A stretch of DNA of 61,024 bases, counting the filler, from Dugesia japonica (taxonomy: Eukaryota): NCBI GenBank assembly GCA_001938525.1. It is 6 parts of 6 records of this genome, joined end to end, with 100 filler letters (N's around TTAATTAATTAA, not from the genome) between each part and the next. Parts side by side here need not be neighbours in the genome. Positions count along the whole stretch, not along the records: positions 1 to 10,180 come from MQRL01355294.1; 5 more parts are not named here. One strand, written 5' to 3'. The notes below the pieces were generated by a model. It was not told the DNA's origin and searched no databases. It saw nothing but the letters and a program-made list of their open reading frames with translations. Each line of letters opens with the position of its first letter. The first letter of the stretch is position 1. A program made the position numbers and the translations under genes. Shown here in pieces: positions 50 through 43,556 of this stretch.

Positions 50-1533
50 ATTATTTGCGGGCTGAAGTTAATGAGTATATTGAACATTGATGAGACTATT
101 CTTCAACTGTGGGAAAAGTTTCAAGTCTTTTATTATTCATGTTTTTTGGAAATATGCTGCCGTAATTGTGAAGTTTAATATGATTTAATGAGAGTAGTTT
201 TTATAAGGAAATAATTTTAATGTTCACTTTGTAACATTTTCCAACTGGCATACTGACTTCTTCAAACAATCATTGTACTTTGCTAGGACTTTTTCATAAA
301 ACCGCGAGTATCATCAATAATTTTTGTAGTAACTCGCCATTACTTAGGATGGTGATTTATATTTCCAACTGATCTAGTTTTACTAAACTTCTCTACACGT
401 TTGTTGATTGCAGTTCTGTGCGGCACATTATTAATGTAGAGGAAATGAAATACATTTACAAATAAAAGACATACAAAACATATAACATGCAGTATTCGGT
501 GATCGAGAATCAGATAGATTCAGTCAGGAGCAACAATTCAGCGATTTATTTATTTGACAATTTATTTTTGTAATCTGACAATTTATTTCATTTTATTTTA
601 TTTTTTTAATTGTATTTGTAAATAATTTAATGTTAATGGACAATTTATTTCAATGATAAATGAAGACATTTTGTGAAATAAGTTAGCTCCCACCAAGGCC
701 AATAATTAAAGGAAATTGTCCAAATAATAATAAACTGGCAGAAGAAATTAATGTCAGTAAATAATTATTTATTGTAGAAAAATTAATTAATTTAAAATAA
801 AAATAAATTGAAATTGGTCGAAAATTGGTTTTTGGTAATTACCTCTACTCTGCATAATCACAGCAATCTTTGGTAAGAAAATCTGAGAAGAATTGGTGAT
901 GAAGCATTAAGAATTGGGTAATAGAAAATCTTACCACTATCCAGAAGGTTTCCACAGGGATTTGAAGATTTGAAATCTGAAAAAAAAATAAAACAAAGAA
1001 ATGACAATCACATGTAACTCCAAAATAGACACCAATGGCGAATTAGAAAATAGTCAAAAATTTGTAAAAATCCGAGGCTACTCCAATATAATTGAAGAAA
1101 TTATAATTAAAATTAGACAACCAATGGAAACGATACCGAGTTGCATTTAGAAGACTATATAAGCACATGGAAAATTAGTCTAAAAAACAACCAACAACCA
1201 TTTTTTCTTCGATTTAATTACGAGTGTGAAAGACATATTACGCTATAGTATCAGTTTAAAGAAAGAAATAAAAGAAGTAAACTATCGTTATTGGAAAACG
1301 AGTACGAGATCAAAGTAAACTTGAAAAGAAAATTATTTGTGATTAATTACTATATTTAAAAGGAGAACCAAATTAAAATCAATCCATTATTCTCAATTCG
1401 ACATTGCCAATTTGTCAGTATTTAACATGTTGTCAGAATCATAACCCACTCTATAAGTAAGCAATGAGTTTATAATTTTTCTAATAAGAAAATTTTTTTT
1501 TATCGAAACAATTTCATAAATGGTAACTAATAA

Positions 1534-2060
1534 ATGTTCAAAGTGAATGTGTCATTATTATTTTTATAAATATTACGTGCTAAAATCTTTGTTACGACCC
1601 TATTATTCAGTAGCCTAAAAATCTCAGTCTCATAAATAGACATGCTGGTTCTGATCAACGCATTCCAAATTTTCTGCTTTATTGCGACAGCAAAATGAGG
1701 ACATCGTGCCATACATGCCTTTACATCTGTGAATAATTGAATACAGAAACCGGTCGTAAATTTGATAACACAATCTTCGAAATAAAATTTTTATAGGTAT
1801 GTTTACCCGTCTGTTTAGCAATTGTCGTGTTGCATTAACCGTTGCAATGAATGTATGCATCAGTATCAAGCAAAATCGGAGTTACTCAGACTGTCATGCA
1901 TTAATAAGACGTGTATCAAAATGCCGTCGTTGATACACACATGGCTAATTCTCTTGCCCACTTGCATTATCATATTATTATTGTCGATAGGTATGCAGCA
2001 GATTGTTATGTGATAGAAGTTGTGTTGGTTAACTAAGCAACTCTTCAGAGCGGTAAATTA
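1534..2060 (+). pseudogene. Decayed Cys-rich type I membrane protein inside the LTR intron (possibly TNFR-like)
   Basis: Manual translation across stops/frameshifts: hydrophobic N-terminus, YCDSKMRTSCHTCLYICE...VCLPVC...CCINRCNEC, then TM segment WLILLPTCIIILLLSIGM. Confidence 0.35.
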
Positions 2061-2518
2061 AAAATGGAACTAGATATATAATCGTTATTAATTTCGAACA
2101 AATTAACAATTCAATTCACCCTTCTATAACAATTATCACTAGCTGATTCCAACTTTGTTGTTCATCAACCTTAAAGACGACCACAATCGGGTATTTATTA
2201 GTACCGTTAGCAGTGTTATTACGATAAATATTACTATTACAACAAGTGAAACTTTCCTTGCCTAATCCTAAGCTCATATAATTTCTATTAACATTTATTA
2301 ATAGTAATACTATCATCAGTAATGTTTATCATCTTTTGAACCCAAAAGAAGTTATGTTTTTCTATTAGATAATTTTTGTTCAATGAATTGATTTCTTGCA
2401 AGTGATTTAATTTTCAACTAATCCGATCGATAAAATATTCCTCCTACTATACGCTGATTACAATATTATTGACGAAATAGAATAAACCCAATAATAACCC
2501 ACGTCACTGATTTTTATT

Positions 2519-2818
2519 GTGTTTTCGCTAGCTGTACTTAGAATCCAAAAGGGGCAAACTGAAGAGATAATTACTTTTGTTTTAAATGGAGAAAAATGTA
2601 TTTTGATTGCTATATTTATTAGGAAGCCAAGTGGGATGCCCTATCGATTATTAAAAATGCTAAGATTTATTCAAGCCGAAAGGCGTAAAATTCGGAGGAA
2701 GCAGCTTTTAGCACATATCCTTTCTAATGGCATAATTAAACATCCCGACGAAACAGACCTCAGGTGTTTCGCCGAGATGTTCTCGCTACCTTCAAAGGTG
2801 GACATCGATGAGAAGTGA
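2519..2818 (+). CDS. LTR-borne accessory ORF, unknown function (inside the 1523-bp intron)
   Basis: 99-aa open frame, more GC-rich than its flanks. No family recognised. Confidence 0.35.
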   Translation: MFSLAVLRIQKGQTEEIITFVLNGEKCILIAIFIRKPSGMPYRLLKMLRFIQAERRKIRRKQLLAHILSNGIIKHPDETDLRCFAEMFSLPSKVDIDEK

Positions 2819-2980
2819 CAATCGTTTTATCAACGCATTTTGTTTTATTTGTATGAGAATATTAATCTAGATAGATAACTAGTTGTAATTATTTTCACTC
2901 CTATTCCTATTTAATCTATAAATATCATTATTAATAACATAAATTAAACCAAGAAAAAAATTATGTTTATTATTTGCAGA

Positions 2981-3481
2981 ATGGAATATCTTTGGGAAAC
3001 GCTGTTCGATCGTCGAACGAATAGGGTAATTTATAAACGGTATTAGAATCCTCATGATCGTAATGCAGGGGTCCTTACCTATTACTCCAACATGGCTTCC
3101 ATCGACGCGGAAAATGAAAGAGAACAGGCTGCGTCCGAACGCCAAGCCTTTTACGAATGGAGAGGTCCCGACCGAACCCGCGAGGTCACCCATCCGTAAA
3201 CCAGGCGGGTTACGAGCGTGTGGCGTGACAGGCCTGAATTTATCCCTGTATCGGCCGCACACGTGCCACCACGCATGAGATTGAGTAAAGAGATAAGCAA
3301 TACTCTTTGGTACTTGCGGAATAGTGCAAGTGGTGGGTTGGCGGAGAATAATGCTCTTTATTTAGTCGACGAAAATCCATAGTTTCAAATAGACTCTTGT
3401 TCTATTATTGATAATAAATTCTGTGTAAAAATAAACTTAGTTACGTTCTTTTTAAATCTGTTGTTGACGGGAATATTATAA
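2981..3481 (+). pseudogene. LTR accessory ORF A (~170 aa, MEYLWETLFDR...)
   Basis: ATG just after the TTTGCAG acceptor. The same frame is present at 41822-42340, with stops at different positions in the two copies. Confidence 0.6.
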
Positions 3482-3565
3482 ATAATCAAATAAGAATAGA
3501 AATTTTTGAGGATTTTAATGTTTTAGTTTGAAGGTATTTTAACAGTCATAATATCTATATTCCAG

Positions 3566-3926
3566 TGCACTCATCGTTAAATAGACTCTACCAGACTCTA
3601 CCAAGAAAATAAGGGAATTCAGTGAAGACATTGAGATGTCTTGGGAGCTGCACCGATTACCTATACGGCGATTTGAGACAGAGATGGCCACTGCTAATGC
3701 CAAAGTGAAGCGATACCGGGCCAAATGTGTCCACATCCGCAAGGAAATTGAGGCTTCGCACGCTCAAGAGAGAGTTTGGAAGTCGCAGGTGGAATCCTTC
3801 GCAGAAATGACCCGTTTCAACCATGACCGAGAAAATAAACTGGTCAATGACATCTTACTCCTCAAAGAAAAAATGCCTTAAGAGCCTCTCATGATTGATA
3901 AAGGTACCCAAACGACACGTCCATAA
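3566..3926 (+). pseudogene. LTR accessory ORF B, coiled-coil protein ending in DKGTQT
   Basis: RRFETEMATANAKVKRYRAKCVHIRKEIEASHAQERVWK... is conserved at 42426-42785. Preceded by a TTCCAG acceptor. Confidence 0.6.
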
Positions 3927-4094
3927 TTCAGGTTGTTATATCCCATTTTCATAAATAAATATCGTTCAGGTATTGAGAGTTGTCTCTGTTTACTAATCTT
4001 CTTCTAGTTTTGTTATAATGATAAATATTGGATATTAATCCTTACATAGTATATAATGATGATAATTTCTCTTTAAAAGTCACTCCATCATATT

Positions 4095-4342
4095 CTCAGA
4101 GGAATAAGCTGATTAAGAAATTAGACATAAAAGTCAAAAAGCAAAACGACATACCCGAGCCGGCAAAACAACTCCTGCAACACAAGGTCAAATTTTTGAA
4201 ATGGTATATTGCCGACCTGTCCCCCCAGTTAGGCAATGAATTGTATCTCAACTGGGTTGATCAGGATGACCATTTAGTATTCGATTTCATACCCGAAGAG
4301 CGTACCCAGTGGTTAGACCCGGGAGCTCTAGATGAAATATAG
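4095..4342 (+). pseudogene. LTR accessory ORF C (C-terminal part)
   Basis: QRNKLIKKLDI...AKQLLQHKV.FLK.YIA is shared with 42952-43305. Confidence 0.55.
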
Positions 4343-6264
4343 GATAGAAACAATACAAGTTATTAGCAATCTGTGTTTATTTTTCGATACTTTAAAATAA
4401 TAAGGAAATAGCTACTGACCCGAACCAAAGGTGTACGAGTGTGAACTTCGCATGAAGTTGAAGGTCAACTGCTCTACACTCAATATCTAATTTGGGGACA
4501 TTAGATCTAGATTCTTGTCTGGTACACCTGATGGCTGTTTTTCCCAGACCAGTTTTTCTCTCCATTATCAGCTCAGGAGAAACCCTAACATTAATAATCT
4601 TTTGTTTAAATTGTTCAATTTCTTTTGACCCTCAGGGCTTGAAAAATGATATAAATATTTGTATATATAATGTCACTAAGTGTATTAATTAAAATTAATT
4701 AATCCAATTATCAAAATAATAAATAGGCTAAAATCATAATGAAAATTATTTTATGAATTCTTATCATAAATTATCTGAATGTAGCTAATTGAGAACACAA
4801 CAAAGTTTACAAAATGTTATTAAAGATGAAACAGTCTAGATAACAAAAGAAATAAATTGAATGAATCAAGAAAGGAATTAGAAATAATGGGCTCGTGAAC
4901 AAAAATCAATAAAAGAGTCAACCAAAAGGAGATAGTAATCAAATAAATATTACCAAATTATCAATGAATTAATTAAAAATGATTTAATAAATCCTCAAAT
5001 TAAAACTAGAACGAGAAAATGAAAATGAAGAGGTGATTGATATTAAAGGAATCGTATATATTCTTTAAAGAAATAATTATTTCAAATGAAATAAAAGGCT
5101 CATAAATAAAGTCGAATCGATAATAATAACAAACAGAGTTTCAAGAAGTAATTATTAGAATAAACAACCAATTAAATAAATATTGTGTAAAGAAATAATG
5201 ATCAATTAGCAAAAAGAGATCAAATAAAGCCATCAAAAATATGAACAATAAAAGGGACCAAAACAAAAGCTTAATAAATAAAAAAAATTTGTACTAAAAG
5301 AATTAAATGAAAATATTTGAAAAAAAGAATATTTGATCATTGAAATAAAATGATAAAAGAGGAGAGTAAATTGATAATTGAGATATGACGATACTCAATA
5401 AAGTAACAATAATTAACGGTAAATATCAGAAACTTAAATGTGCCTCGCTCAATAAAAAGAAAGTTCGAATTAATAATAATTAAATAATAACTGAATGAAA
5501 TAAATTATACCAGAAAATGGTGAGAAATAATAAACTAAGTAAAAACGAAACTGGAATTGGAATATTTTAAATATTTTTATGTATAATTTATATAAATGCT
5601 ATACCAGCAGAAATATAATGAAATAAGTATTATAATGTAATAGAATAATAAAGTAGAATTAAAACAAAAGTATTATATTAAAATATTGTAATAAAATAAA
5701 GAGAAATGATCAAACTTAAATATGGAATAAATCATTATTATTATTATAATTAATCAAGAAATTATTAAAATCGTTATTATTCAATTANGAAAATCAAATT
5801 ATTATAAGTATGTATTAAAATAAGAAGAATGTAACATTATTATTATTTTGTGATAAATATTATTAATTTTATTATATTCAATAAATATTTTTTATTTATG
5901 AAGAAAAAAATGGAATTATGAGGCCAGAGTTATATGTAATGAAAGATAATAAAAAGTTCAATTAAGATATTAAATTATTTATACTTGTTTATGTAAAGTA
6001 GTAAGACATGTCAGCATGACCGCATTCCCCCCGGAGAGAAATTTTTTTTCGATTTTTTATTTTTTTCTGATTTTTTTTTGAATTTTTTTTTATTTTTGAT
6101 TTTTTTAAGGTCATCAATTTTTTTGTTAGCGTCAGTCAAGGTAATGCGTAGAACTACTGAATAGAGAATTAAAAAATAACAGGAATGTGTAATGAACTTA
6201 TATCGTAAAATAACTCTTTCCCCATTAAAAAGCATTGAAATAATTAATTTGATTACGTAATCAA

Positions 6265-10180: not shown

Positions 10181-10280
10181 NNNNNNNNNNNNNNNNNNNN
10201 NNNNNNNNNNNNNNNNNNNNNNNNTTAATTAATTAANNNNNNNNNNNNNNNNNNNNNNNNNNNNNNNNNNNNNNNNNNNN
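10181..10280. other. Artificial contig linker (N44-TTAATTAATTAA-N44)
   Basis: Six-frame stop spacer. Identical linkers at 19616-19715, 29024-29123, 40729-40828 and 52573-52672. Confidence 0.95.
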
Positions 10281-13826: not shown

Positions 13827-13905
13827 TATTTATGAAGATGCTTTTTTATATACATGTATAAATAATACTAGTTTAATTGAAACGTTTAAACAAGCAATAG
13901 TTATA
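13827..13905. promoter_or_regulatory. Putative bidirectional promoter between the TBP-like and ATPase genes
   Basis: 79-bp spacer with TATATAAAAAAG on - and TGTATAAATA on +. AATTGAnACGTTTAAACAAG is also conserved upstream of the second ATPase (40697-40717). Confidence 0.45.
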
Positions 13906-14506
13906 ATGGAATTAAAAAATGATGCTGTATATCAAATTGTTAGTCCAAGTGGTAGTGGAAAAACCTTATTTGTATGTAAATTATTCAAATCAAAATTCCA
14001 TAACATATACTGGCACAGAATAGCAGATGAAGAGCATGGACTAACTAAATCTGAGTTCAGAAATATTAAAATGAAAATTATAAATGTATTTGATGAGAAA
14101 TGGAGCAATAAATTAAGTAAAGGTGATGTCATTATAATTGACGATCTGTATCACGAAGCAAACAAGGACTTTAACAATTTATTTACAAAGATATCAATAC
14201 ATTGTAATGTGACTGTGATATTCATTACTCAAAATCTATTTCACCAAGGGGGGTGTCATAGAATACGAAATTTACATGTGCAATACCTGATTATATTTAA
14301 AAAATCCTCGAGATCAAACAGTTGTTAATTTTCTAGCAAGACAAGCGTATCCGAATAATATTCAATTCCTTATGGATGCATTCAAAGATGCCACCGTAAA
14401 TCCTCATGGATATATTTTTGTAGACTTTACACAAAAATGTCCAGAAGATCTTAGAGTGCGAACTGATATTTTTAATCCAAAAGGTGTTACAGTATATAAA
14501 CAATAA
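13906..14506 (+). pseudogene. Polinton A32/FtsK-like DNA packaging ATPase (frameshift near 14305)
   Basis: Walker A SPSGSGKT, Walker B IIIDDL, VIFITQNLF. Continues in the shifted frame as FLARQAYP...PHGYIFVDFTQ...RVRTDIF. Confidence 0.9.
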
Positions 14507-14531
14507 AAGTAATTTCTTATTTTATTTAAAA

Positions 14532-14803
14532 ATGACGAAACTTACTAAAGCTGTAGTTGATCAAATAAAAAGAAAGAATCTTGAACAAAACAACATTCAA
14601 TCTAATTTTCAAATGTTCATGATATCAAACCAATAAAGACGTCAAGAAAGACTAAGAAACAATCAAAGATTTGTATCAAGAAACGAAGAAAGACTGCTAC
14701 TAAGAAACCATCAAAGAAAAAACAGTTAAGAGAGTTCAAAAAACTATCAAAACGCTTTGGATAGAAACTTTCAAACGTAAATGGAAAGTGGATAAAGCTA
14801 TAA
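14532..14803 (+). pseudogene. Small basic K/R-rich Polinton protein (candidate DNA-condensing core protein)
   Basis: MTKLTKAVVDQIKRK.../KTSRKTKKQSKICIKKRRKTATKKPSKKK, frameshifted. Confidence 0.45.
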
Positions 14804-14845
14804 ACAAATAACATGTGCATATATATATATATGAAAATAAAAATT

Positions 14846-15206
14846 ATGAAATTTCAACAAAGTCTTCCGTTTTTTAATGCGTTGCTTAAGATTTCCAAAG
14901 AGCTGAGAGTGAAAATTTTGCAGTCATTCCCATCTTTTCTAATTAATGATCTACTAGAGATTATTGTAAATGTGGTTCGAGGTATTGTAAGTTTAAGCCA
15001 AGCTAGAAAGCAAGCATTAGAGAAGCATAAAAAGACATTATTATCACTTGTTCATACCAAAAATAAGAGATTAATGAGAAAGGTTTTTCATAAAAAAAGA
15101 AGGCTTTATAGCCGAATTACTGTCAATTGTATTAGCAGCATTGGGATTAGCAAATTTTACATACGAAATGGGTAACTTGGAATCATTATCACAAATTTAT
15201 CTTTAA
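14846..15206 (+). pseudogene. Conserved small Polinton virion protein with C-terminal (G)GF amphipathic helix
   Basis: LLEIIVNVVRG...LEKHKKTLLSL, then frameshifted KEGFIAELLSIVLAALG, like the QxGGF-ending Polinton core proteins. Confidence 0.6.
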
Positions 15207-15229
15207 TTTATATCAAAATTGTTGTAACG

Positions 15230-16217
15230 AACAAAATCGAAGGTATATAGACAGATCCAAAAAATCCAGCAGGGTTTTAAAGATTAGAAAAATTATGGAA
15301 AGCAACAAAAAATTCAAAAAGCGAGACGAAAAATTGGCTATTAAGTCAGCTGGCGTACAGTCTAAACAAACCAATGTTGAAAAGATTTCCAACTAGAGCG
15401 TACAAAACATTTTGTATAAATGATTTATGGCAAATGAATTTGATACAAATGATTCCATATTCAAAGATTAATAAAAGTTACAAGTACATTTTAACATGTG
15501 TTGATATATTAAGCAGATTTGCGAGAGCTATTCCTATCAAATTAAAATCTGCCATTGAAATGAAGTCTGCAATCAAATCAATGTTGAAGGATGAACAGCC
15601 AAATATTTTACAAACTCATTTAGGAAAAGAATTCTACAATTCAAAAGTCAGAAATATTATTTCACATTTCAATATCAATCATTATTCTGTCTTTTCACAA
15701 TACAAAGCAGCATATGTTGAGAGATTTAATCGGACATTGAGAGATAGCTTGAAGAAATACTTTGTGCACACTGGTAGTAAAACATGGATACATGTGATAC
15801 CAAAAAATAATTGATAGTTATAATCATTCAAATCACAATAGATTAAATGGTGCGAGACCTGTTGATGTATCATCTGATAATTCAATGAAATCATAGCTGT
15901 TGAGACAACAACCAAAAGAACTTAAAAAACTAAAATATAAAATTGGTGATCATGTTAGAATATCAAAGATATCAGCATCACCATTCATCAAGAAATTTAA
16001 TAGTAATTGGAGTGATGAAGTGTTTGAAATAAAAAAAATCGATACTAATCAAAATCCAATAATGTATGTAATTAAAGATCATGAAGACAATACCATAGTA
16101 GTAAAAATTATAAAAACAAAGGGAGTTGGAAAAGTTAAAGAATTATATGTAAAGTGGCGCGGATATGAAAAACCTTCTTGGATACTAGCAACTCGATTAG
16201 TCAATTTAAATGAATAA
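15230..16217 (+). pseudogene. Polinton retroviral-like (rve) integrase with C-terminal chromodomain-like region
   Basis: YRDPKNPAGF, DLWQMNL, YILTCVDILSRFA, LQTHLGKEF, KAAYVERFNRTL, YKIGDHVRISK, NWSDEVF, LYVKWRGY. Confidence 0.9.
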
Positions 16218-17205
16218 TTTCTATACAATTTTACCAAGCAATAGTTGTCCACTTATTCATCCAGATAATAAAGCTAGTAATTTCAATGTCGAGTTTCAAG
16301 ATCCTATTAATTTGATTGGACAATAGCAAGTAGCCATGTTGGATTTCACATTTGTATATTCCAAATTTCCATTTTATAGTAAATCAAAGATTAAATATGG
16401 TACAAGTCGAGATGTATCAGAAAAATTGCCAATTACAGTATACAAAAATGAAAATCGTATAACTATCACTGCAAATAGTATTCTTAAAGTAAATGGTCTT
16501 ACCAATTTGAAGATTAATTATATACATGATTCATATTTCATAACGTTTGATACAATTGAAAATGCCAAAAGATTTGGATTTGAAAATCAGAGAAACTGGA
16601 TCAAATATAAACATAATCTCAAACCTCAATCGCTTAAAAACAATCAATTGATAAAACCAATTGTGATTAAAGTAACATATTCTGTAATAGTTAAGAGAAG
16701 AAATACAATTCAAAGATGATAGAATTACTTTATAACAAATTTCTCACAAGTATTTGACTCTTTGGTTTTAAACAAAAACGAGTTATTTATTTTCAAGGTG
16801 CAAGATAATGTTAAATGTATTCGATTTGACAAAATCCTGACAAAAACATTCGGAATAGAAAGACAAGAATATCAAATAATAAATCCAAGAATTACAGAGA
16901 TTAATGGTGTGAGAATTCGAAAAAGTATCAACTATCATCAGCAAATGTTTATCTACAGTAACATTGTTGAACCTATAATTGTCAGGGATGTTAAAGTTTC
17001 TTTGTTGAAATTCGTATCGTTGGAGAAATATAACGATGATGAAATTGTTCAGATTATAGTCAAGAATCCAATGTATTTGCCAATTTTCACTTGATGTATA
17101 AACAATATAGAAATCAATATACGAGATAATTGTGGAAAATTAATCAACTTTGCTCAAGACTCAAAAAAACATTTAACTACTCATTTTCTAAAAATCAATG
17201 TCTAA
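16210..17205 (+). pseudogene. Polinton minor capsid protein (penton)
   Basis: MNNFYTILPSNSCPLIHPDNKASNFNVEFQDPINLIGQ*QVAM at the N-terminus. MFIYSNIVEP...KNPMYLP...INNIEINIRD at the C-terminus. Confidence 0.8.
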
Positions 17206-27903: not shown

Positions 27904-30559
27904 CTTAATTTAAAGAAAATCAATAATTGTTTTTGAAATAAAAAAAAATTTCCATTAAGATTTGTTGTAAATAAATTTTTATTCATTAATTCAATACTTG
28001 CATATACAACCTTTTATAGTTTAATTAAACATTAATTAAGTGCAGGTGTGTTGTTACAATCCGAGAATTACAGAAAATTTTCTAAAACATAGAATTTCTA
28101 AAAGTTCCGAAAATTAGAAAAAATCTCAAACAACAAAGGATATGATATAGCAATTATGAGTAAGCATCATCTTATTCAATATTTTATTAAAAGAATACAA
28201 ATTAGTAGTGACGATGAAAAATTATTATTTAATAATAATGTGCAATATTTCTTATCAATAATTGTTTAAAATAATTATTTTCTGTAAATTTTCATATTAA
28301 TTTAAATCAAGTTTTAAATCTTAATTTTCAATTTGTGAAAAATAATTTCCAATTAGAGCATGAAGTTTTAATTTGTTTAAATAAACAAATAATGATGGTT
28401 ATAGTTTTTCTTTGAATAAAGATTGTAATGAATTCGAGTTCTGATGTTGATAATCCGACGAGTTTTCCAAACTCATCTAACAGTGTTTAAATAGTTTATT
28501 TTTATGTAAATAATTTATATTGTGTACTTTTTTACAAAAAAAAATTAATGTATTCAGTAGCATAATCAGAACCTTCAGTACCAGGAAAAGTTTATTAATT
28601 TTGATTTTCATGTTTTGGCCAAAATATGTGACTGGACTGATTATTCAATGGTCCAACTTAGCGGCTTTCACTTCAATTTATTATAAACCAGAACCGTTGC
28701 CAAAATGCTTTATAATCTNTTTTTATATTTAAAACTAATAATTCATATTTTCCATTGTTAAGACTTTATCATATTTATTAACTTTTCGGTTTTTGCCGTA
28801 ATCGGCATAATTTTAAATTTCCTACACGTCAGTATTTTGCTTCACAATATGAATTTTCAAAAATTGGATTCCAAAAATTCCGACTCAATTGTAACAAATG
28901 CCTTAAATTTTTCTTACATTCAAGGGGCCACAAAATATTTATATAAAGAAAATTTCATGGATTCATCAATTTTTTACCATTCTCAATTCTATTTTTTTCT
29001 TTTCTTACAAATTATTTGAAGCANNNNNNNNNNNNNNNNNNNNNNNNNNNNNNNNNNNNNNNNNNNNTTAATTAATTAANNNNNNNNNNNNNNNNNNNNN
29101 NNNNNNNNNNNNNNNNNNNNNNNAAAAATCACCAATCTTTATCCTTGATTAAATAAATTGAAAAAGCTATTACTTTAAATTAGTTGGTCCCTGAGAAAAT
29201 TTGTAAGTATGAAATGGATAACATTAAATTTGAAATAAATTAATTGTATGTATGAAACTAATCATGAAAAATTTAATTCATCATTAATTAATAGTCATCA
29301 AGTTAATCGTAAAGGAAACAATAAAATTATAATTAAATTCNNNNNNNNNNNNNNNNNNNNNNNNNNNNNNNNNNNNNNNNNNNNNNNNNNNNNNNNNNNN
29401 NNNNNNNNNNNNNNNNNNNNNNNNNNNNNNNNNNNNNNNNNNNNNNNNNNNNNNNNNNNNNNNNNNNNNNNNNNNNNNNNNNNNNNNNNNNNNNNNNNNN
29501 NNNNNNNNNNNNNNNNNNNNNNNNNNNNNNNNNNTAACTCCTTTATGTGATAATTTATTCACAAATATTGGTTTTCTCACTGTTCACAGGTCTTCAATGA
29601 TCAGTGCTCTGATCACTAGTCCTCAGACATCAAAACTCTGCAAGCTGTGCACTGGTCATAAGAGATCTGACCACTGTACACTAGTTTTCAGTAATCAATA
29701 CTCTGCTCAATGGGCACTGATCTTGAGTTGTCGGTGGTTTTCTCGTTCTTCACAGGTCTTTACTCTTTACTAATTTTCTCACTCTTTGCTAGTCTCGNTT
29801 TTTATTGATCTTAAATGTACTGTTTGGTTAATTTTAAAACTTCATAAATGTTAGATTAATTATTTTACTTTGATTGAATAAAATTTCTATTTCAGGATTT
29901 AATTAATTAATTTGAAATGTTAATAATAGGTTTGTGAATAATTGGTTAGAATTTTAATGATTGAATAAATTTAAATGTTACAAGCAGATATTCAATTGGT
30001 AAGTTAATTAATAAGAAGAAGTTATATATATTAAGTTGAAAATATGTGAACAATTAACCAGTTATTGGTTGTAAGGTGTATATTCAGTGTGAATTATAGG
30101 CATAACTATAAGAATAAGCGATGAATAGATTAAGCCATTAACTGAATAATCAATAGTTTAATGATTACAACGAGTATTGTGTATGGTAACATTTAATTAT
30201 AGCGAGTTTTATGTATTAAGACTTGATAAAAGCGAATATTGTGTATGTTAATACTTACTGATAGTGAGTATTGCGTATGTTAATAAAATATAAAATAGAA
30301 TATCCTCACCAAAAGGATATCAGAAACCCAAAATGAAAATGGAACGGAAACGACCACCAAAGTGGAATCAGCCACCCACCAACCAACAGACTCAACTACC
30401 GTCGCACAGAGGTAAGCAATATAACTCAAACCAAGGTCGTCGAAAAACCACCAGTACACCCATCATGGTAAGAGCCTATTGAATAAGGTTTTAGGAGAGG
30501 GAATCAAGATGGAAGAAGAAAAAAACAACATAATACAAGTCAAATCCCTTCAGATGTAG

Positions 30560-33500
30560 TATGCGCAAGTCTTGGTGGCGGACCATTATTAACGATTATG
30601 GTTAAAATCAACGGTAGACCTACAACGGCCTTGTTAAATACAGGAGCAAGAATTTCGTTATTATCAATAGAGAAAATCGCTATAACGGAATATAAAAACA
30701 TACTGCCCACCAACACTACGGCAGATGTGGCGAACTGTAGTAGTCTTAAAATTTCTGGGGAGCTACCTTGCAAAGTAGAATATTTGGACAATAAAATTAA
30801 ACAAAATATGATAGTAGTCGAGATAGCAGGACAGTGTATTTTGGGCACAGACATTCTTCCAACTCTGATGAAAAATACAAAATATATTGTTGAAAAAATA
30901 AAATATTAAACTTCTCAAAATTATGGTTGCAATCACTGGAGGGATATACTCATGTTAAAGATCACGAGGTATTCACAACAGAAGAAATATTGGTGCCAAG
31001 CCGATGCCACGTATATTGTGTAGTAAGCACCAAAAGTGCATACGAAGGAGATGGCTATTTTGAACCTTATGATGGATTGGCACAACAATATGAGTTGCTC
31101 ACAGCAGGGGGAATAACCACGGTCAACAAAAGTGGAGAGGTACCTGTTAGTTTAATCAACTTCACCGAAAAGAATATCATAATCAAACCGAATTCCAAAA
31201 TGGGTACGCTAACCCTCATCAAACAAGAAACCGACGAGATAGAAGAAATAATCGTCGAACTAGTAATAGATAGGACATTTTAAGTGGAAACCGAAACACT
31301 ATCGGATGACCAAAACCAAGCAATTCTACAGTTGTTAGAAGAATTTCGGGATATTTTCCATGGACTGATGAGGAACTAGGTATGTTTACTGCTACAATGC
31401 ACACAACTCCGTTAACAGACGAAAACCAAAGTAAACAGAAACCATATGCAATGACTGTGAAAAAAAAGGAATTTGCAAACAAGAAAAAAGCTAAGCTGGT
31501 GAAAATTGGGTTGATAGAAGCTAGCTGCTCACCATGGCAGTCACCAGTAGTATTAGTTGATAAGAAAGACGGGACACAACGATTTTGCATTTATTATAGA
31601 AGGCTGAAGGCACAAACTAAACAGGACACGTATCCGTTGCCAGACATCAATGAACTACTACAATTATTGTGTGATACCAAAATATTCACTACACTGGACA
31701 TACGAAGCGGTTATTGGCAAATCCAGATTAAACCAGCAGATAAAGAGAAAACAGCTTTTTCCACAGGCAAGGATTTATACCAATTCATACGCATACCGTT
31801 CAGACTCACTGATGCACCTGCCTCATAACAACGAATGATGAATTATGTAACCTATGGCATATCTCAATGTATGACATATATTGAAGATTTACTGATATAC
31901 TCGCCAACGTTTGAAGGACATCTCAATGATTTGCATAGTGTGTTTATTCGATTACGTAAATGGAATTTGAAAGTGAAACCCACTAAATGTGAATGAGCCA
32001 AGAATAAAGTAAAGTATTTTTGTCACTTAATCTCCGACAAAGGGAAGGAACCGGATCCAAGAAATACCGAGAAAATCAGGAATCTCGCACCTCCAAACTG
32101 TGTGCTCAAAATACAAGAGTTTTTAGGCCTCGCAAATTATTATCGGAAATTTATCAAAGATTTCGCTAAAATTGCTAAACCAATTCAGGAACTGGTCAAA
32201 CAGGATACCGCATTCATATAGGGGCCGGAGCAGCAACAATCATTTGAGACAGTGAGGAACAAATTATTAACTCCACCAATTCTGGTGCATTCGGATATAA
32301 AAAAACCATTAGCCACTGACACTAGTGGTTACGCGATGGGTGCTGTGTTAAACCAATTGGATCAACAAGGTAGAGAAAGAGTGATAGCATATTTTAGTCA
32401 GAAATTTCAAGGGTCAGAGTTAAATTACAGCACTACAGAACGAGAAATAATGGCTATTGTTAAGGTCACTAAGCATTTCCGATCACTCATACATGATCAC
32501 GAGGTGTTAATCTATACGGATCATCTGCCAATCACATTTATGGATCAAAAACCGTTACGATGGAATAGAATGGCGAAATGGCAACTGGCAATGCAAGATT
32601 ATTGCCCATTGTTAAAATTTAAAACCGGTAAAGCAAACGCGAATGCAGATTGCATTTCAAGAATAGGCGGACCGGAAAATGCGGAAACTACATCGGACGA
32701 CACGGAAACTTTCACATTACGCGATTTACTAGAGAAAAAAGTGGGAATGGTATATTTTATATTAGCCGAAGATCAAAATTTCAAGGGATTGAAACAAGCA
32801 CAGTCAGAGGAGGAGGAAATACAGATCATTGCGAAATATATGGAAAATTACAACCTAAAGAAACAGGAATGCGAACCTAAAATGAAGGAGCATTTACAGA
32901 AGAATGGTGGGCGTTATGCTTTCACTAAAGGCTGGTTAACAGCTCAGAATTGGGAAAATACCGTGTTAGTTATTCCAAAATCCAGGCGACATAAATTGCT
33001 GGAACAATATCATAATGGAGTATTGGAGAGACACATGTTACATAAAAAGACTGAGTCAAAATTACTGCAGAAATACTACTGGCCACACATGACAGAATCA
33101 GTAAAAAAATGGATCACCAAATGTCAAATATGTGCTGCCAGGAGAGGAACGGGCAAGCGAGTAAAGGCATTACTAAAACCCATTGCAGTACCAGCAACAC
33201 CTATGTAAATAATAGCCATGGATGTAGTTGGACCATTGCCACCGACACTATGCAGAAATATTTACATACTTACTATCATCCATAAACATACGGACGATTT
33301 AATGAAACATTGATCAATATGCTGTCTAGTTATGCACAAAAGGAACAGAATAATTGTGATAAACATATTCAACTATGTCTTTTTGCATATCGAATGAGTG
33401 GGCATCCAGCTACTAAATACACCCTATTTGAACTTATGTATGGCAGAGAATGCAACATGTCAATCGATTTGGAATTCAAACTTCTTATAACTCAATACAA

Positions 33501-34017
33501 AGATGAAACGGATTTCGCAGCAAATTTCAAAGAAACTATGCAGAAAATCTTGAAACAAGCCAAAGAAAATGTAGGCTTCTACCAAGAAAGTTGCAAAGAT
33601 TTGCATGATAAAACCGCAGTTCAACATGCATATAAGAAGGGCGACATGGTATTAATCAATTTACGGTATATTTACGTCAGTACTACGTCAAAATTAAAGA
33701 AGCCTTGGCAAGGGTCATATGAAGTAATCGAGGTAACTAAAATTAACCTCAAAGTTCGGAAAAAAGGAAATCTCTTAGAGAAACCTAAAATCTACAACGT
33801 CAACTTATGTAAAAAGGTCGCAACAACGGATGAAATTACTCCAGCCACAACTGCTGCACCAACTACGTCAGAACATAGAAGACCAGATAGACCACGTAAG
33901 TCAAAAGATAAGGAAGTAAACACCTCGCACAGTTACCCATTACGATCACAACAAGCTATGATGATACTCGGAAAATTATCAACACCAGTATTCGTACTAG
34001 GTCAGTTAAGTCAGTGA
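30560..34017 (+). pseudogene. Gypsy pol: protease, RT, RNase H, integrase (core largely deleted near 33275)
   Basis: ALLNTGA (PR); SPWQSPVVLVDKKDGTQRFCIYYRRL, LDIRSGYWQI, YIED (RT); TDTSGYAMGAVL, YSTTERE, YTDHLP (RH); H..H..YYWPHM..CQIC (IN zinc finger); KPWQGSY. Confidence 0.92.
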
Positions 34018-37000
34018 GTTAAAGAATTGGACACTACAACGCTGTATCCTATAATTCCAAGAGAAACACAGACAACAGTAGCAGAAAATAATTGTGCCAA
34101 CTTTTCTTGGGTGACATGCCTAATCTCACTAACATTAATCGAAGCGAGTTGTCTTACCTGTATAAGGAAGATGCAAACAGTTCTGAAATCGACATTATGC
34201 AGCGTCTCCGCATGAAGACTGTGGTTGTTACACCAAGATGAATTTAGTAGAAAACGATGTAAGAAAATACATGATGAACTGTCAATTCAAGCACTATTAG
34301 AGCAAGACGTAATTAACTCCTTATGTGAACCCTGCGTTGGAATTTATTGGAAATTAAAAGTGGTTATACAACTAGAAGATGAGGAAATGACAGAAACAGA
34401 ATTGCAGAAGAAAACTAGATTGCTGAAAAATGGTGTTTTAAAATATGCGGATAAACGAAGAAAGCCTAGGAAAGTGAAAGATAGTCCGATTTTATATCAG
34501 GATTTTCATGCCAAAACCGGCAAGGAAAACGCCGAAACCCTAAATACTGCACTATCCACCAAGGAACTAAAACCTTCGAATATTATAGGTATACCTAAAA
34601 TAGCAGAGACACCAAATACTAATCATCTGTCTCAAGCTCAAATGACATTATCTATGATTAATAATAGATCAATCATTGCATTAAAAATAAAACATTAAAA
34701 CTGTATCTTTTGGTTCAGATAATCAAATGCGGCGACCACTTGTAATCAAGGCTATGAACGCCACTATGATCTTTACCATCACATGCCATGGAAGCCGGAA
34801 AACAAGATCCAAAAATGGTTGTATTCATATTACACGCATAACATGTCCCTTCTCAGCATTACAACTGAAGGAGAATTGTCTGCAATGTATTAAGCGAACA
34901 CAAATTATATTTAAAAAAATGCACTAAAGGCCATTTACGAACAACGAGCATGGCTAGTTAGACCAGAAAATTGGTTTAGGAAAGACTGTGAGGGATCACG
35001 AATTAAAATACCAATTCAAGCACCCATTCGTCAATCTGTCATAAAAAATTATGTATGCCATGCACGGATATTTACAGCGATAAATTATTAGCATCCATTC
35101 ATGTATTTCACCGTGCACTGGTGCAATTGAACTGGATAAGAGTTTATGAACCTTTGAAGATTCAATTACCATGGGAAATGGTAGGATCACCCAGTCAAAG
35201 AAAATACAAGCTAAAAAATATGGCGAAATTGGACGTAAAATCAGATAAACTAACTCCCAGAGAACCGTAATTGAACAATATCGAGAACACCCAGGAAGGA
35301 ATACAAAAGCGAGTGAAAATAATAGAAAAGTCATTCAATGAACAATGAAATAAAATGGATGGAAAAGAGAAACAACTAGCCAACATAGCCTTAGGAGAAA
35401 TGGAAAGAATGAATATGACGGTAGTATATAATGAGACAGAACAAGCGGAGGAAGAAACACAAGAAAACAAGAGTATAATTACAATGGAAGTAATAATCAA
35501 AGTGGCTTTGTTGTTATGGGCAGTAATCAACACAAGTTGCGATTTTGGCATATTAATTTGGTTGACCCTGAAACTCATCAAAAATATGGGGAAAGGCTAC
35601 CAAACATCAATTATAATTTATGAAGTAGTGGGAATAATCTTACTATGATTAGCATTACCAGCATTGGCAACTCATCAAATACAGAATTTCAACCAGAATA
35701 AAATCCCTAACGGACAAATTATACTTATAATTTTAATTATGATAACGAAAGGAGGTAAAAGTCAAGACTGTTGGACCAACTTGGCAATATGAACAGAACA
35801 TAGGATATTTGTCGAGGATAGCAAAACAAGAATTAGGACAATGAGTACAGATGGACGAAACCGTAAGGTAAAAGTTCACGAGGGATACGGTCATGAATCA
35901 ATACTCCTAAAGCCCACAATCATGGGAACAAAAGAAATCAGGATATTATTAACCTGGCATAAGTAGACGGCAAGGTTATGGTTCAGAGTAGATATACCAG
36001 TAGAGGGTCAGGAAATGCACAAAACATTGGTGGATGCATTCAGCATAATAATTTCAAGAGAAGTGCCGCAAAGGCTACAGCGAATACGAACAAGAAATAC
36101 AATTCGACATACAAATTGCGCGCAACTTCTTAATCTACTATATAGTGGATAAACAACAACAAAGAGGATGGACTTGGAAAAGGAAAGGGAGATGAGAGCT
36201 TGAAAATTTATCAAAAGAATGAATACATATTTCATATACAATTTTGGAAAAATGTATTTAAGGAAACAACGGGAGAAGATAGAAAACAGAGATTTATGGA
36301 ACAAAAAAGTATAGCTATTAACCGAGAAAAGGATTCAACACAATAACTGAATATTCTTTTGACAAATGGGGATCCCATTGGCAGGAAGAACCAGGACCAG
36401 TACAGATCAGAAAAATGAATAACACTTATCACTTGAGAATTAACGAGAAAATGGAACAATTGACAGCACAGAAATATTACTCGCTCATTCAATGGGCATG
36501 GTGTTACAACGAGGAGGTAGCGAGATTTAAAGAAAATGCGTTGCAAGAGCAAGGAGTAAATATGGGTAGTTTCGGCCCAGAAATGTAGGAATGAAATTCA
36601 CTACAGCCATAAATCGTGATATAATAATAAAATCAAACACCACCAGACCAAAGGTTAAAGAGGTTACGATTACAGAAAAAACCACCACAACAACAGCGGA
36701 AACTCAAAAACCAACTACGTTAGTCAACGAGGAAAGAGAAACAAAAAGAGCAAACTTCTTAAACAATTTAATGATAAACTTGCGGAATTACAAGCCAAAG
36801 GAGGACCATGTGATGGGATGAATGGGCCTACCACAGTAAAGGAATCAATTACTACACTCTAACCGACAAAAAATGGGATAGATTATATAGTAACAATAGG
36901 GAGTGTGTCAATAGTGGTATTTGTATTAATAACGATATATTTGCAATTCTGTAAACGAGCGAAACCCAAACGAAAGAAACATATCCGAAGTAGAAGAAAA

Positions 37001-37117
37001 CGACATCTACCGATAGCCCCACCAATCTACGAAGGATTACCACTTCGGGTGATATCGAACAAATTATCCACATATGTGCCTAGACCCTATCAGGCACCGG
37101 GGGTAATGACTTGCTGA
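33958..37117 (+). pseudogene. Post-integrase env-like membrane/glycoprotein region, decayed
   Basis: Cys-rich segments (34100-35060), hydrophobic helices near 35490-35750, Thr-rich stalk at 36591, and TM VSIVVFVLITIYLQFC followed by a basic tail with PPIY. Confidence 0.5.
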
Positions 37118-37230
37118 ACAAACATTAAATCTGTGTAAATAGTGTAAATTATGATGAAAACAATTACATAATGACTATATAAACATGTAATTATAATGAG
37201 GTATTAATTAAATTTTCACATTCAGACAAA

Positions 37231-37800
37231 ATGAGTGTTATCGAAAATGAAAATGAATATTCAAATATGAGTACAAATGAAGTGATGGATTCGCAAAGTG
37301 ACACAGAAAGCTCAAGTACAACAAGCCATATATGTAGTAGTCATGCAAGAAGCCTTACCCGAATAAGCAATAATTATAATACCCTTTCACAAGTGACGAT
37401 AAATGAAATATGGAAAAATCATAATGAAGAAATGAAAGAACTATGGGATAGGGCTCAAATCCAAACTCATTAGACACAACAACGATTGGAAGTGTTGGAG
37501 CATAGCCAAAATCAATTACTCAAAACTATAATACACACGAAACCTCAAGATTTGAATGAGCTGGAGTTTAAAAACAAAGTCCTACAGTTGCAAAACGAGA
37601 ATCTATATGCAGAAACCCTTATGTGTCGGCAACAAATAGTAGAAAATCGACGAATGTTGGAAACCACTACAGAAAAACAGAATTATGCAATGGAATTATT
37701 AGCCAGACAACATGACCTAATTTCTAATAAGACAAGAGAACTAAAGGAGTAGTAGCCTCACAAAAATGGAAAATCGAGACACTCAACATGGAGTGCTCGC
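37231..37800 (+). pseudogene. Accessory coiled-coil ORF of the Gypsy element
   Basis: Ser-rich N-terminus, then heptad-rich LEFKNKVLQLQNENLYAE.... One in-frame stop. TTCAG acceptor just upstream. Confidence 0.55.
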
Positions 37801-38217
37801 ACTCAAGTCAGCTTTGTCTAAAAATTTAAGAGAGAGTGGAAGTTAAAAAAAATATATATAATAATATATAAAATATATACATAAAATAATAGATACCTAG
37901 TAACTATATACGTATTCGAGTAAATATAGAAACTCACGAAAAATAGTAAATAAACTGAAAATTAAAATAATTGTAAATAAATAGTATTGTATAACCAGAA
38001 ACAATCATGCATATAATTTTAGATAATAGAATTCGATCTGGAACTATCAATAAATGAGGCCAGACTAATAATGAATGATCTGGATATTGAATTATATTGT
38101 ATGAGCCAAGGTCGAGAATAAGTCAAGCAAAGTCCAATAGTGCAAAACGTAATGCACTACTGAAATAGTTTTTGGTCACCAGAAAATTTTATACGACGGA
38201 AAGTGTAGTACAGTGTA

Positions 38218-38703
38218 ATGAAAGTTTTCGACTATAAATATCGAGATGAAGGTATACAAACAAAATCCTTATTCGAGTTACCCAAGTACCTGCATGGACT
38301 CATTGAGGATATAGCCAGATCTGGATTTTATTTCGCCGGTACCTCAGAACGGCCGGATAAAGTAAAATGTATATATTGCCAAGGAAACCTGTACAAATGG
38401 AGCATAAACGATAAACCTAACAGAGATCACAAGAAATGGTTTCCTACATGTCCTTTTCTGTTAAATTTAGATGTAAATAATAAAACAAAACCAAGCAAAG
38501 GCAGAAAATCAGAAATTGAAAAATTAACTTCAGAACCGAAAAAAATATATTTCAAAATCATAAAAAATCGAGCAGAAGTACCATTACCCGATGATATAGA
38601 ATGGAATATCGAAGCTAGAGAAGAAACCTTTCATAAGGCACTGGACTTAATAGAAAAGGCAATGGAAGGATTAAATAAAACGGGGAGTGATTTGTTGGGG
38701 TGA
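38218..38703 (+). CDS. BIR-domain (inhibitor-of-apoptosis-like) protein carried by the retrotransposon
   Basis: IARSGFYFAG...DKVKCIYCQGNLYKWSINDKPNRDHKKWFPTCPFL, the canonical BIR CX2C-X16-H-X6-C pattern. Confidence 0.9.
   Translation: MKVFDYKYRDEGIQTKSLFELPKYLHGLIEDIARSGFYFAGTSERPDKVKCIYCQGNLYKWSINDKPNRDHKKWFPTCPFLLNLDVNNKTKPSKGRKSEIEKLTSEPKKIYFKIIKNRAEVPLPDDIEWNIEAREETFHKALDLIEKAMEGLNKTGSDLLG
38673..38692 (+). promoter_or_regulatory. Polypurine tract
   Basis: AAATAAAACGGGGAGTGATT immediately before the LTR start TGTTGGGG. Confidence 0.65.
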
Positions 38704-39892
38704 AACACGCAGTCTGAAAAGAAAACCAAACGAAGGGCCAGAGAGGAAGAATTAATAAAGAAAAAGGATTAAAAGGAAATTCAATCAGGAACAAAGCACT
38801 TACGATGAAAAAGATAGAATACATACATCAATAAAAGAAATCACAACGAATTAATTATGAATAACTAGTATGGCTAAATTAGAATAAAATTAATTAATAA
38901 ATAAAAGATTAAAATACCGAGAAGAGGGATAAAAAGATCTTGGATGAATAAATCTGGACCACATCGACTATGGTAATCAAAAGAAATTATGAAAATAATA
39001 ATTAAAATCAAGAAAAGCTACGAGTGAAAAATCATTAATTACCAGAAAAAATTAATTAATTTTGAAATAAAATAAAGCAAAATTAGTTAAAAATTCGTTT
39101 TTTACGAATAGCTTTGCTCAGAAGAATCGCAGCAACGCGTGAAAAAAAAATCTGAGAAGATCTCTAAATGAAGTATTAGGAGTTGAATATGAGAAAATCT
39201 TACCACCATCGAGAAGGTTGCCACAGAAATCTGAAAATAAAAATAAAACAAAGAAATGACAATCACATGTCACTCCAAAAATAGACACCAATAGAATGTC
39301 AAAAGACTCTACAAAAATTCTAAAATTTGGCATCAATACTAATAAGAATCAAGAATCCGAGAATAAAAATAACTGGCCAATACAGAACGAGTCGGGGTGT
39401 AACCAAAACGGGTTTATAAACCCCCCAAACTTTAGAAGAAAAACAACTTAAAAAACGAAATTTTCTAACTTTACTTAAGTTATTTGAATTGCTAAAGTTT
39501 TACGGAGGAACACTTACTGCTATTTGTATAATAAATCAAAGTAACACAAATTGCAAACTTACTTGTTAATTATCTTTGAAATTTAAAGGAACAAAGGTTT
39601 ATCGGTAAAATTCAGGACACGGCGAGAAATAATCAAAACTTAAATAGACAAAAATCCGTCGCAGATATTCTAAATAATAAGTAGTTAGTAATTTTGTCTG
39701 GATGAATATTCTGTTTTAAAATGAATTTAATAATAAATATTAAGTGTAACAGAAAATTTGTTTTGATTTTTGTAACTAATTTGAATAGTGCTTTAACCGA
39801 ATAGACAAAAGCAACATGCTCAAGAACTATCACTGATTCCTGCCGTTCAAACAATCGGCATACGAAGTTACAGTCGACCAAGAGATGCCGTG
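38693..39892 (+). repeat. 3' LTR (partial) of the giant Gypsy element
   Basis: Starts TGTTGGGGTGAAACAC, as at 41086. 39040-39295 matches 780-1035 and 41390-41653. Confidence 0.8.
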
Positions 39893-40728: not shown

Positions 40729-40828
40729 NNNNNNNNNNNNNNNNNNNNNNNNNNNNNNNNNNNNNNNNNNNNTTAATTAATTAANNNNNNNNNNNNNNNN
40801 NNNNNNNNNNNNNNNNNNNNNNNNNNNN

Positions 40829-40902
40829 TATGTAATAATCCGATTACGAGGGGGGGTTCTACTGAATGTGTGCGTGGTGCCATCCGCTACTATCTATCTA
40901 CT
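40829..40902 (-). mobile_element. Polinton TIR end at contig start
   Basis: ...CTACTGAATGTGTGCGTGGTGCCATCCGCTACTATCTATCTACT. Confidence 0.7.
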
Positions 40903-41085
40903 CACAAAGACTCCCCTCTTTGATTAAATTCTATAATAAAACAAATATCTATGGACTTCACTCTTTGGTTATTTTATAACAAAATAAACAAGGACTTCCT
41001 TATTTGAAACAATATACTGTAACTATGTAAATAATACATAATTTCTTTAAAGTTTATATTATATTCTATTATATTCTTTTATTAT

Positions 41086-43556
41086 TGTTGGGGTGAAACA
41101 CCCGATTAAGAAGAAAGCAAGGCCAAAGGCCCAAATCATAAGCGGAAGGCTACTAGCAAAGAAAACTAATGAAGAACAGTATTCATATTATAATAATAAA
41201 CTACGAATAATCAATCATGGACAGAATATGTTAAAATATCTGATAAAAGGCCAAAAGAAAAAGAAAGTGAGTATGAAGACCTTGGTGAAATAAGTTAGCT
41301 CACACCAAGGCCAATAATTAAAGGGAATTATCAAAATAATAATAAACGGCAGAAGAAATTAATGTCAGTAAATAATTATTTATTGCAGAAAAATTAATTA
41401 ATTTAAAAGAAAAATAAATTGAAATTGATCGAAAACTGGATTTTGGTGATTACCTCTACTCTGCCAAATCACAGCGACCTCTGGTAAACAAATCTGAGAA
41501 GAATTGGTGACAAAACATTAAGAATTGGGTAATAGAAAATCTTATCACAATCCAGAAGGTTTCCACAGGGATTTGAAGATTGGGCCAATAAGAGATCCGA
41601 AAAAAAAATCAAAGGAATGACAATCACATATCATTTCAAAAATAGACGCCAATGGTGTAAACCGAGCACGAGACCAAAGTAAACTTGAAAAGAAAATTAT
41701 TTGTAATTAATTACTATATTTAAAAGGGAGAACCAAATCAAAATCAATTCATTGTTCTCAATTCGGAATTGCCAATTTGTCAGTGTTCAACCCGTTGACA
41801 GAATCATAGCCAATCTATTAAATGGAATATCTTTGGGAAACGCTATTCGATCGTCTTACCAATAGGGTAATTTTTAAACGGTATTGGAATCCTCATGATC
41901 GTAATGCATGGTTCCTTACCGATTAATCCAATATGCCTTCCGTCGACGCAGAAAATGAAATAGAATGGGCTGCATCCAAACGCTAGGCCTTTTACGAATG
42001 GAGAGGTCCCGACCAAACCCACGAGGTTTTACATCGCGTCACCGTCACTGATCCGAAAACCAGGCATATTACAAGCGTGTGGCGTGACGGGCCTGTATTT
42101 ATCTCTATATTGGCCACATACGTGCCACCCCACACGATATTGAGTGGAGAGATAAGCAATACTTTTTGGGACTTGCGGAATAGTGCAAGTAATGGGTTGG
42201 CGGAAAATAATGCTCCTTATCTACTCGAAGAAAATCCATTGTTTCAAATATACTCTTGTTTTATTAATGATAATATATTCTGTGTAAAAAATTAACTTAG
42301 TTACGTTCTTTTTAAATCTGTTGTTGACGGGTATTATTAAAAATAATCAAATAAAAGTTGAAATTTTTGAGGATTTTAATGTTTTAGTTTGAAGGTATTT
42401 TAATAGTCATAATATATTTATTCCAGTGCACTCATCGTTAAATAGACCACCAGCCCCTACCAAGAAAGTAAGGGAATCCAGTGAAGACATTGAGATGTCT
42501 TGGGAGCTGCACCGATTAACCAAACGGCGATTTGAGGCAGAGATGACCACTGCTAATGCCAAAGTGAAGCGGTACCAGGCCAAATGTGTCCACATTCGCA
42601 AGGAAATTGAGGCTTCGCACGCTCAAGAGAGAGTTTGGAAGTTAGAGGTAGAATCCTTCAAAGAAATGATCCGGTCCAACCATGACTGAGAAAATAAACT
42701 GGTCAATGACATCTTACTCCTCAAAGAAAAAATGCCTTTGCAGCCTCTCATGATTGATAAAGGTACCCAAAAGACTTGTACTTAATTATGGTTGTAATAT
42801 TCCATCTTCATAAATAAATATCGTTTATGTATCAAGAGTTGTCTCTGTTTACTAATCTTTTTTTATTTTTGTTATAATGATAAATATTGGATATTAATCC
42901 TTAGGCCTAATAAAATGATGATAATTTCTCCATAATATTCCCATTGTTTCAGTGTCCCGCATCAGGCTTCCAAGTAGGTTAAGTCGTTGCCATCGAATCA
43001 TCCAAAGATTACTTGTGGAAAGAAATCTCAAAAGTCAAACCGAGAGGGCTCTTTTAAAACTTTTGGCTCAAAGGAATAAGCTGATTAAGAAATTAGACAT
43101 AATAGTCAAAATGCAGAACGACATAGCCGAGCAGGCAAAACAACTCCTGCAACACAAGGTCGAATTTTTGAAACGGTATATTGCCAATCTGTCCCGCTAA
43201 TAAGGCCATGAATCGTGTCTCAACTGGGACGATCCAGATGACTTCGATTTCATACCCGAAAAGCTTACCCAGTGGTTAGACCCGGGAGCTCTAGATGAAA
43301 TGTAGTATAGAAACAATTCAATTTATTAGCAATCTGTGTTTATTTTTTGATACTTTAAAATAATAGGGAAATAACTACGGACCCGAACCACAGGTGTACG
43401 AGTGTGAACCTCGCATGAAGTTGAATGGTCAACCGTTCTTCACTGAATATCTAATTTGCGGACATTATATCTAAATTCTTGACGGGGTACACCTGAGGGT
43501 CGTTTTTTTCCCGGCCAGTTTTTCTCTCCATCATCAGCTCAGATGGAACCCCAACA
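41086..43556 (+). mobile_element. Complete solo LTR (2471 bp, spliced form) with 4-bp TSD TTAT
   Basis: TTAT|TGTTGGGG...CCCCAACA|TTAT, with perfect 8-bp terminal inverted repeats. Contains ORFs A, B and C. Confidence 0.88.

Follow-up and report, generated by a model that had tools for sequence, protein, structure and literature searches.

The window analyzed here, a stretch of 61,024 nucleotides from Dugesia japonica (GCA_001938525.1), is joined from six parts by five N44-12 bp-N44 spacers (10181-10280, 19616-19715, 29024-29123, 40729-40828 and 52573-52672), across which contiguity is not assured. It contains three copies of a long terminal repeat (LTR), whose features are listed in Table 1. 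Copy 1 has the long form; it is 5'-truncated near position 655 with approximately 190 bp lost, the full long form being about 4.1 kb. Copy 2 is a solo LTR with TG...CA ends and a short inverted repeat (TGTTGGGG at 41086 and CCCCAACA up to 43556). Its flanking 4-bp TTAT repeat sits within a TTA tract and is, therefore, weak as a target-site duplication. Copy 3 is 68-73% identical to the family LTR over approximately 340 bp and thus belongs to a sister subfamily; it serves as the 3' LTR of a degraded Gypsy-type element, and a Polinton-like insert of approximately 1 kb interrupts it at about 39888. According to Pfam, the internal region of this element shows the Ty3/Gypsy (Metaviridae) domain order PR-RT-RH-IN at 30487-33208, and a pol search with the element returned one match. 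The assignment of copies 1 and 2 as LTRs of a Gypsy-type family is supported.

Table 1. Coordinates of the LTR copies and associated features in the window.
Feature	Position	Strand	Remarks
LTR copy 1, long form	660..4590	+	3' end CCCTAACA; followed by AT-rich flank, without PBS-like sequence
Stretch not in copy 2	1039..1291	+	253 bp, ends not GT-AG; holds TATA-like box TATATAAG at 1156
Shared stretch before donor	1292..1456	+	Putative non-coding leader exon; only short upstream ATG frames
Intron-like block	1457..2979	+	1523 bp, GTAAG donor, T-rich CAG acceptor; not in copy 2
Candidate Cys-rich micro-ORFs	1799..2013 (1799-1933, 1855-2013)	+	GC-richer patch in the block
Micro-ORF with HPDETD motif	2636..2818	+	60 aa, inside the block; YAG at 2622, 14 nt before ATG
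ORF A	2981..3454	+	~158 codons, three internal stops in copy 1; ATG one base past acceptor
ORF B	3636..3881	+	81 aa, open in copy 1; YAG at 3565, 71 nt before ATG
Predicted poly(A) signal AATAAA	3954..3959	+	Followed by T/GT-rich tract; kept in both copies (copy 2: 42813)
Degraded Gypsy-type internal region of copy 3's element	30487..38703	+	Protease, dUTPase, RT, RNase H, integrase zinc finger, broken ORFs, BIR-domain ORF
LTR copy 3	38693..39887	+	Starts with TGTTGGGG behind polypurine tract; diverged sister subfamily
LTR copy 2, solo LTR	41086..43556	+	2471 bp, TGTTGGGG...CCCCAACA; TTAT/TTAT flanks in low-complexity TTA tract
Joined junction of copy 2	41815..41831	+	Join 41820/41821; CTATTA/AATGG at 41815-41825

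Several other features accompany these copies. Downstream of the integrase of the copy 3 element, a long region of broken ORFs (34000-37752) includes a coiled-coil-like frame and hydrophobic stretches followed by basic residues at approximately 36863-37000; it is possibly a surface-protein remnant, and three frames of 33900-37200 had no Pfam family. The BIR-domain ORF (38209-38703, Pfam E 9e-17) ends in a stop codon that overlaps the start of the 3' LTR. The Polinton-like insert in copy 3 (39888-40905) has 55-bp inverted ends (87%) and an A32-type ATPase frame, lacks a clear target duplication and spans assembly gaps. A further end of the Polinton-like inverted repeat occupies the window start (1-49) and, together with a second A32-like ATPase with an rve integrase nearby (13864-16719), was read as Polinton remnants; copies 1 and 2 each lie within 0.2-0.6 kb of such an inverted-repeat end. 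Between copies 1 and 2, the minus strand carries part of a gene of the host, an AT-rich animal, namely a stalk fragment of an axonemal-type dynein heavy chain (21795-22217). The intervals 58277-58621 and 60536-61024 contain tandem arrays of 64/124-bp units and an open frame of RNSSPG-type repeats, which runs off the window end and is possibly a gag start.

Within the LTR, GC-richer ORF patches (0.37-0.47) alternate with AT-rich spacers (0.20-0.30) in an exon/intron-like pattern. A single homologue of ORF A (P0004) was recovered with HMMER among 1.84 billion representatives (E 5.5e-11, 30/65 identical residues, 46%), while two word-indexed searches gave no match, and neither ORF A nor the ORFs of the block had a Pfam family. 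Since the P0004 alignment starts at residue 1, the start of ORF A is real, and the acceptor, therefore, precedes a real start. The ORF is broken in both copies, with two internal stops in copy 2 at codons other than those of copy 1. The dN/dS ratios between copies 1 and 2 were 0.97 for ORF A (no selection seen), 0.48 for ORF B (17 differences) and 0.78 for ORF C, the latter being a frame of 80 codons without ATG (4097-4345). ORF C opens at a YAG site (4099) located past the predicted poly(A) signal, and a donor-like site within ORF A (3026) would join it in phase. ORF B gave only Atlas leads below 0.9 and a sub-threshold Pfam match. The HPDETD micro-ORF is strongly covered by contigs of the family. 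A family copy in public runs X10 and X14 carries a deletion of 2633-2930, which removes this micro-ORF and is not splice-like.

The ATG is preceded by a YAG triplet at 2 nt in ORF A, at 14 nt in the 2636 ORF and at 71 nt in ORF B, the triplets being chosen post hoc from 46 YAG in 3.9 kb; this spacing is only suggestive of one leader that might be joined to several acceptors. A TATA-like box is also found in copy 3 (39415), at a distance from the LTR start similar to that of the box at 1156. Both the transcription start site and the poly(A) site are predictions, and the box at 1156 and the AATAAA at 3954 are as compatible with a long R or an internal promoter as with an intron in U3.

The difference between copies 1 and 2 on which the original prediction was built was confirmed. 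Copy 1 reads CTATAA (1451-1456) followed by GTAAGC from 1457, the block ends at 2979 with TATTTGCAG, and AATGG follows from 2980; copy 2 passes directly from CTATTA into AATGG. The two copies are 87-88% identical on either side of the junction and align in four colinear blocks (self-BLAST). The claim that the block is bounded by a GT donor and an AG acceptor was likewise borne out, as the exact placement had the top score among 25 placements (81 vs ≤79), and both block ends match the donor and acceptor consensus of a spliceosomal GT-AG intron precisely at those positions. The acceptor at 2979 is the richest in T (10/14) among the 25 YAG sites listed out of 46. Removal of the block does place the ATG of ORF A at the junction (2981; 41822 in copy 2), one base past the join.

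Sequence comparison indicates that the long form, with the block present, is ancestral. Contigs of X1, X10 and X14 with 17-38 differences from copy 1 fall inside the block. The donor is bridged unspliced by an X10 contig (1194-1532), and the acceptor by contigs of X1 (2903-3186), X10 (2839-3094) and X14 (2743-3186), with the pyrimidine at 2977 kept in the X10 and X14 family contigs. Moreover, the tail of copy 3 and the block's initial 110 bp align colinearly (score 34, z 4.7, 1/300 shuffles), albeit in AT-rich sequence, whereas this tail does not align with ORF A (z -0.5). The stretch of copy 3 just upstream of this tail resembles copy 1 weakly (z 0.6 and 2.1), and the support that copy 3 lends to an ancestral long form is, therefore, moderate; the window past copy 2 did not reveal any continuation of copy 3. 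The opposite polarity, whereby copy 1 would have received the block as a mobile insertion of independent origin and copy 2 would represent the empty site, is largely refuted and extremely improbable. The block is indeed flanked by a 2-letter repeat, AA. However, if AA were a 2-bp duplication, the empty site should be 2 nt shorter than copy 2 shows, no duplication longer than AA is present, and terminal inverted repeats are absent (7/20 matches). A fitting target-site duplication, which was named at the outset as evidence for an insertion, was thus not found. There is also no second copy of the block in the window; it is colinear in other family copies and in the diverged copy 3, and the motif of its micro-ORF is the LTR family's own.

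The original prediction went further, to a family that routinely splices in its U3 region, packages spliced genomes and maintains stable long and short LTR isoforms with different gene cargo. In its favor, the junction is precise and the cargo real, the block carrying at least one micro-ORF; the isoforms as a family trait were not sustained. Among the joints listed, the joined form was seen as one contig in one of eight public runs. In this run (X1), one of 10 listed joints was 1456/2980, in a single contig with a depth of 8.5 (other single contigs 5.5-8.9) and with the letters of copy 2 itself; X1 is DNA-like and may be the source sample of the window. None of the nine joints listed in X10, X14, X9 and X13 was at 1456/2980. 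Overall, 19 joints were checked, consisting of the 10 from X1, eight skips from X10, X14, X9 and X13, and the 1039-1291 deletion of copy 2, with one joint that goes back excluded. GT..AG ends occurred in two of them, exactly at 1456/2980 and, at slide 2, at 2632/2956. The latter was rejected as a splice, its 19 intervening letters resembling 2932-2949 by eye. Among the skips listed for family copies, the remaining 17 end at heterogeneous positions. The summed contig depth in X1, which is not a copy number, reached 149-228 across ORF A, exceeding the 22-96 seen across most of the block, and further joined copies are, therefore, possible; against this, the non-coding spacer 3340-3481, common to both forms, had a depth of 90, similar to that of the block. 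Contigs drop rare variants and show presence, not absence. Taken together, routine isoforms are decidedly unlikely, and what emerges is a family of long forms in which deletions are scattered and a single copy is precisely joined.

The RNA runs barely cover the family. The RNA status of the contig runs X9, X10, X13 and X14 is a guess; none of the four showed the 1456/2980 join, and in X9 and X13 the coverage was almost only of A-rich patches. The raw RNA runs X2, X3 and X6 (approximately 6, 25 and 25% read) yielded 4, 16 and 14 partial reads, respectively, with zero depth over 2914-3481 and thus no power to reveal the join, and no pile-ups of read starts or ends were seen in the mapped public runs. 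Since no run showed spliced RNA, with the family barely covered, the case for splicing rests on one DNA copy. Viral contigs gave no match to the junction and no relative of the block's micro-ORF. A metagenome-contig locus (L001) found with a 20-letter pattern was discarded as a chance match, having no BLAST match to the window.

Since the block has precise ends, is ancestral and bears a micro-ORF, and since the ATG stands next to the junction, a spliced RNA is the likely template of the joined form. Copy 2 thus probably descends from reverse transcription of such an RNA during the element's replication, a rare accident fixed once. From the original prediction, the true intron ends, the non-insertion and, as the best explanation, the passage through an RNA intermediate stand, without the generalization to the family. 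The 4.1-kb LTR would be transcribed as a small unit, its promoter lying close to the TATA-like box at 1156. A short leader would end at the donor (1456), and the acceptor at 2979 would bring ORF A beside it. In the particle, reverse transcriptase might either copy genomic RNA spliced in its LTR part or switch templates to a co-packaged spliced LTR mRNA; the new LTR would then be copied onto either end before integration, and later recombination would leave a solo LTR. The 1039-1291 deletion takes the predicted promoter and start site and might, speculatively, reflect an imprecise return of the reverse transcriptase once it had reached the mRNA's 5' end. An X1 contig with the same deletion as copy 2 has a depth of 14.4 vs 8.5 for the contig with the joined junction, and the deletion and the junction may accordingly be separate events. 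In one solo LTR, the packaging of whole spliced genomes would look no different from template switching or cDNA gene conversion.

Gene conversion would need no new integration: a reverse-transcribed spliced LTR transcript would have recombined in place with a chromosomal LTR. It predicts the same precise junction, is compatible with a single copy, and is among the routes listed for spliced copies of endogenous mouse mammary tumor virus, having been shown for Ty in yeast (PMC11998498, in part). Nevertheless, divergence between copies 1 and 2 is even on either side of the junction, all five segments compared differing at 9-12% of aligned bases, and nothing points to a conversion tract, although this comparison of two copies has little power, and conversion leaves the neighboring 253-bp deletion unexplained; it is considered unlikely. 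An ordinary DNA deletion, by end joining or replication slippage, could also have landed on splice-like signals. The family's 17 other heterogeneous skips, the second, non-GT-AG deletion in copy 2 and the lack of spliced RNA in runs barely covering the family all fit such an event. However, from the LTR's own composition, the chance of a random deletion with GT..AG ends is 2.7e-3 and that with GTRAG..YAG ends is 1.3e-5 per deletion, the latter staying below 1e-3 even when 19 joints and some sliding are allowed for. Furthermore, the junction has zero microhomology on both sides and no filler letters, and the deletion would have to end one base ahead of a conserved start codon, which makes this origin highly unlikely. 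A LINE-made processed pseudogene was excluded because the LTR ends of copy 2 are intact; both are present, the copy continues for approximately 740 bp past AATAAA, and there is no poly(A) tail.

Descent from a spliced RNA has parallels in other retroelements, where, as in HERV-H and intron-marked Ty, precise intron loss marks RNA passage; introns in these systems are internal or engineered, as opposed to the LTR-internal intron here, which skips small genes. Spliced HERV-H proviruses were reportedly described by Goodchild in 1995, and rare spliced genomic copies of the plant element Ogre are said to have been found by Steinbauerova in 2008. Copy 2 combines the precise intron loss, integration and intact LTR termini of the Mtv rem/HERV-H type; recurrent or amplified spliced copies of that type were not found, the joined form being listed in the one contig mentioned above. 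The closest case is that of Mtv (endogenous MMTV) copies without the rem intron, which are rare and, according to the consulted part of PMC11998498, may arise by recombination of co-packaged genomes, gene conversion or LINE1; HERV-H and Ty are cited there as precedents. In either case, exactly one intron is missing from an integrated retroelement whose LTRs remain provirus-like. The Mtv intron, however, lies in env, its splicing is proven, the loss recurs (14 mice) and the ORF is open (same part of PMC11998498), whereas the intron missing from copy 2 lies wholly within an invertebrate Gypsy LTR, with one copy, a broken ORF A and splicing that is deduced.

Among Gypsy-type relatives, the planarian giant Burro/GYPSM1 shares a dUTPase between protease and RT, a BIR domain, multi-kb LTRs and accessory ORFs (PMC6431247, in part). 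It differs in that the BIR domain of the element described here forms a separate ORF after pol, adjoining the 3' LTR. Compared to the giant gag-env-pol of Burro/GYPSM1 (>30 kb), the 5' part of the present element, its gag and any env-before-pol region are absent from the window. LTR splicing goes unmentioned in section 7 of PMC6431247, which gives the Burro/GYPSM1 account. Ogre is likewise a Gypsy element with 1.9-6.5-kb LTRs and a spliced transcript (parts of PMC6431247 and PMC3735527), but its intron separates the gag-pro from the RT ORFs and is not part of the LTR. In all cases covered by the relevant part of PMC3735527, namely Ogre, CRR, Bagy2 and BARE, splicing is internal. The sORF1/sORF2 of the Drosophila MDG1 group resemble the present ORFs as small accessory ORFs of a Gypsy-type element with a short polyadenylated transcript, yet they lie between the 5' LTR and gag, and the excerpted text of PMC11952523 reports no evidence of their splicing. 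Splice terms are absent from the available portions of PMC8532177 and PMC13524379, and exact-phrase searches of open papers turned up no intron contained entirely within a Gypsy LTR, nor the precise loss of one, the papers they did return looking unrelated.

A wider, tentative and rather doubtful reading is that the 4-kb LTR could be a multi-gene unit, in which one promoter and leader exon would serve alternative acceptors before four or five micro-genes, much like the accessory genes of complex retroviruses; spliced LTRs would then be heritable, and splicing plus reverse transcription would edit their cargo. For now, the finding amounts to a single decayed example of a process for which MMTV, HERV-H and Ty offer earlier descriptions. 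Natural and precise loss of an intron within an LTR is, at the same time, a fossil transcript, from which the exons of an otherwise unannotated accessory-gene unit can be read, here in an invertebrate Gypsy element. If the shared-leader model is true, regulation in the style of complex retroviruses would extend to a Gypsy LTR, and LTR length could shrink by splicing.
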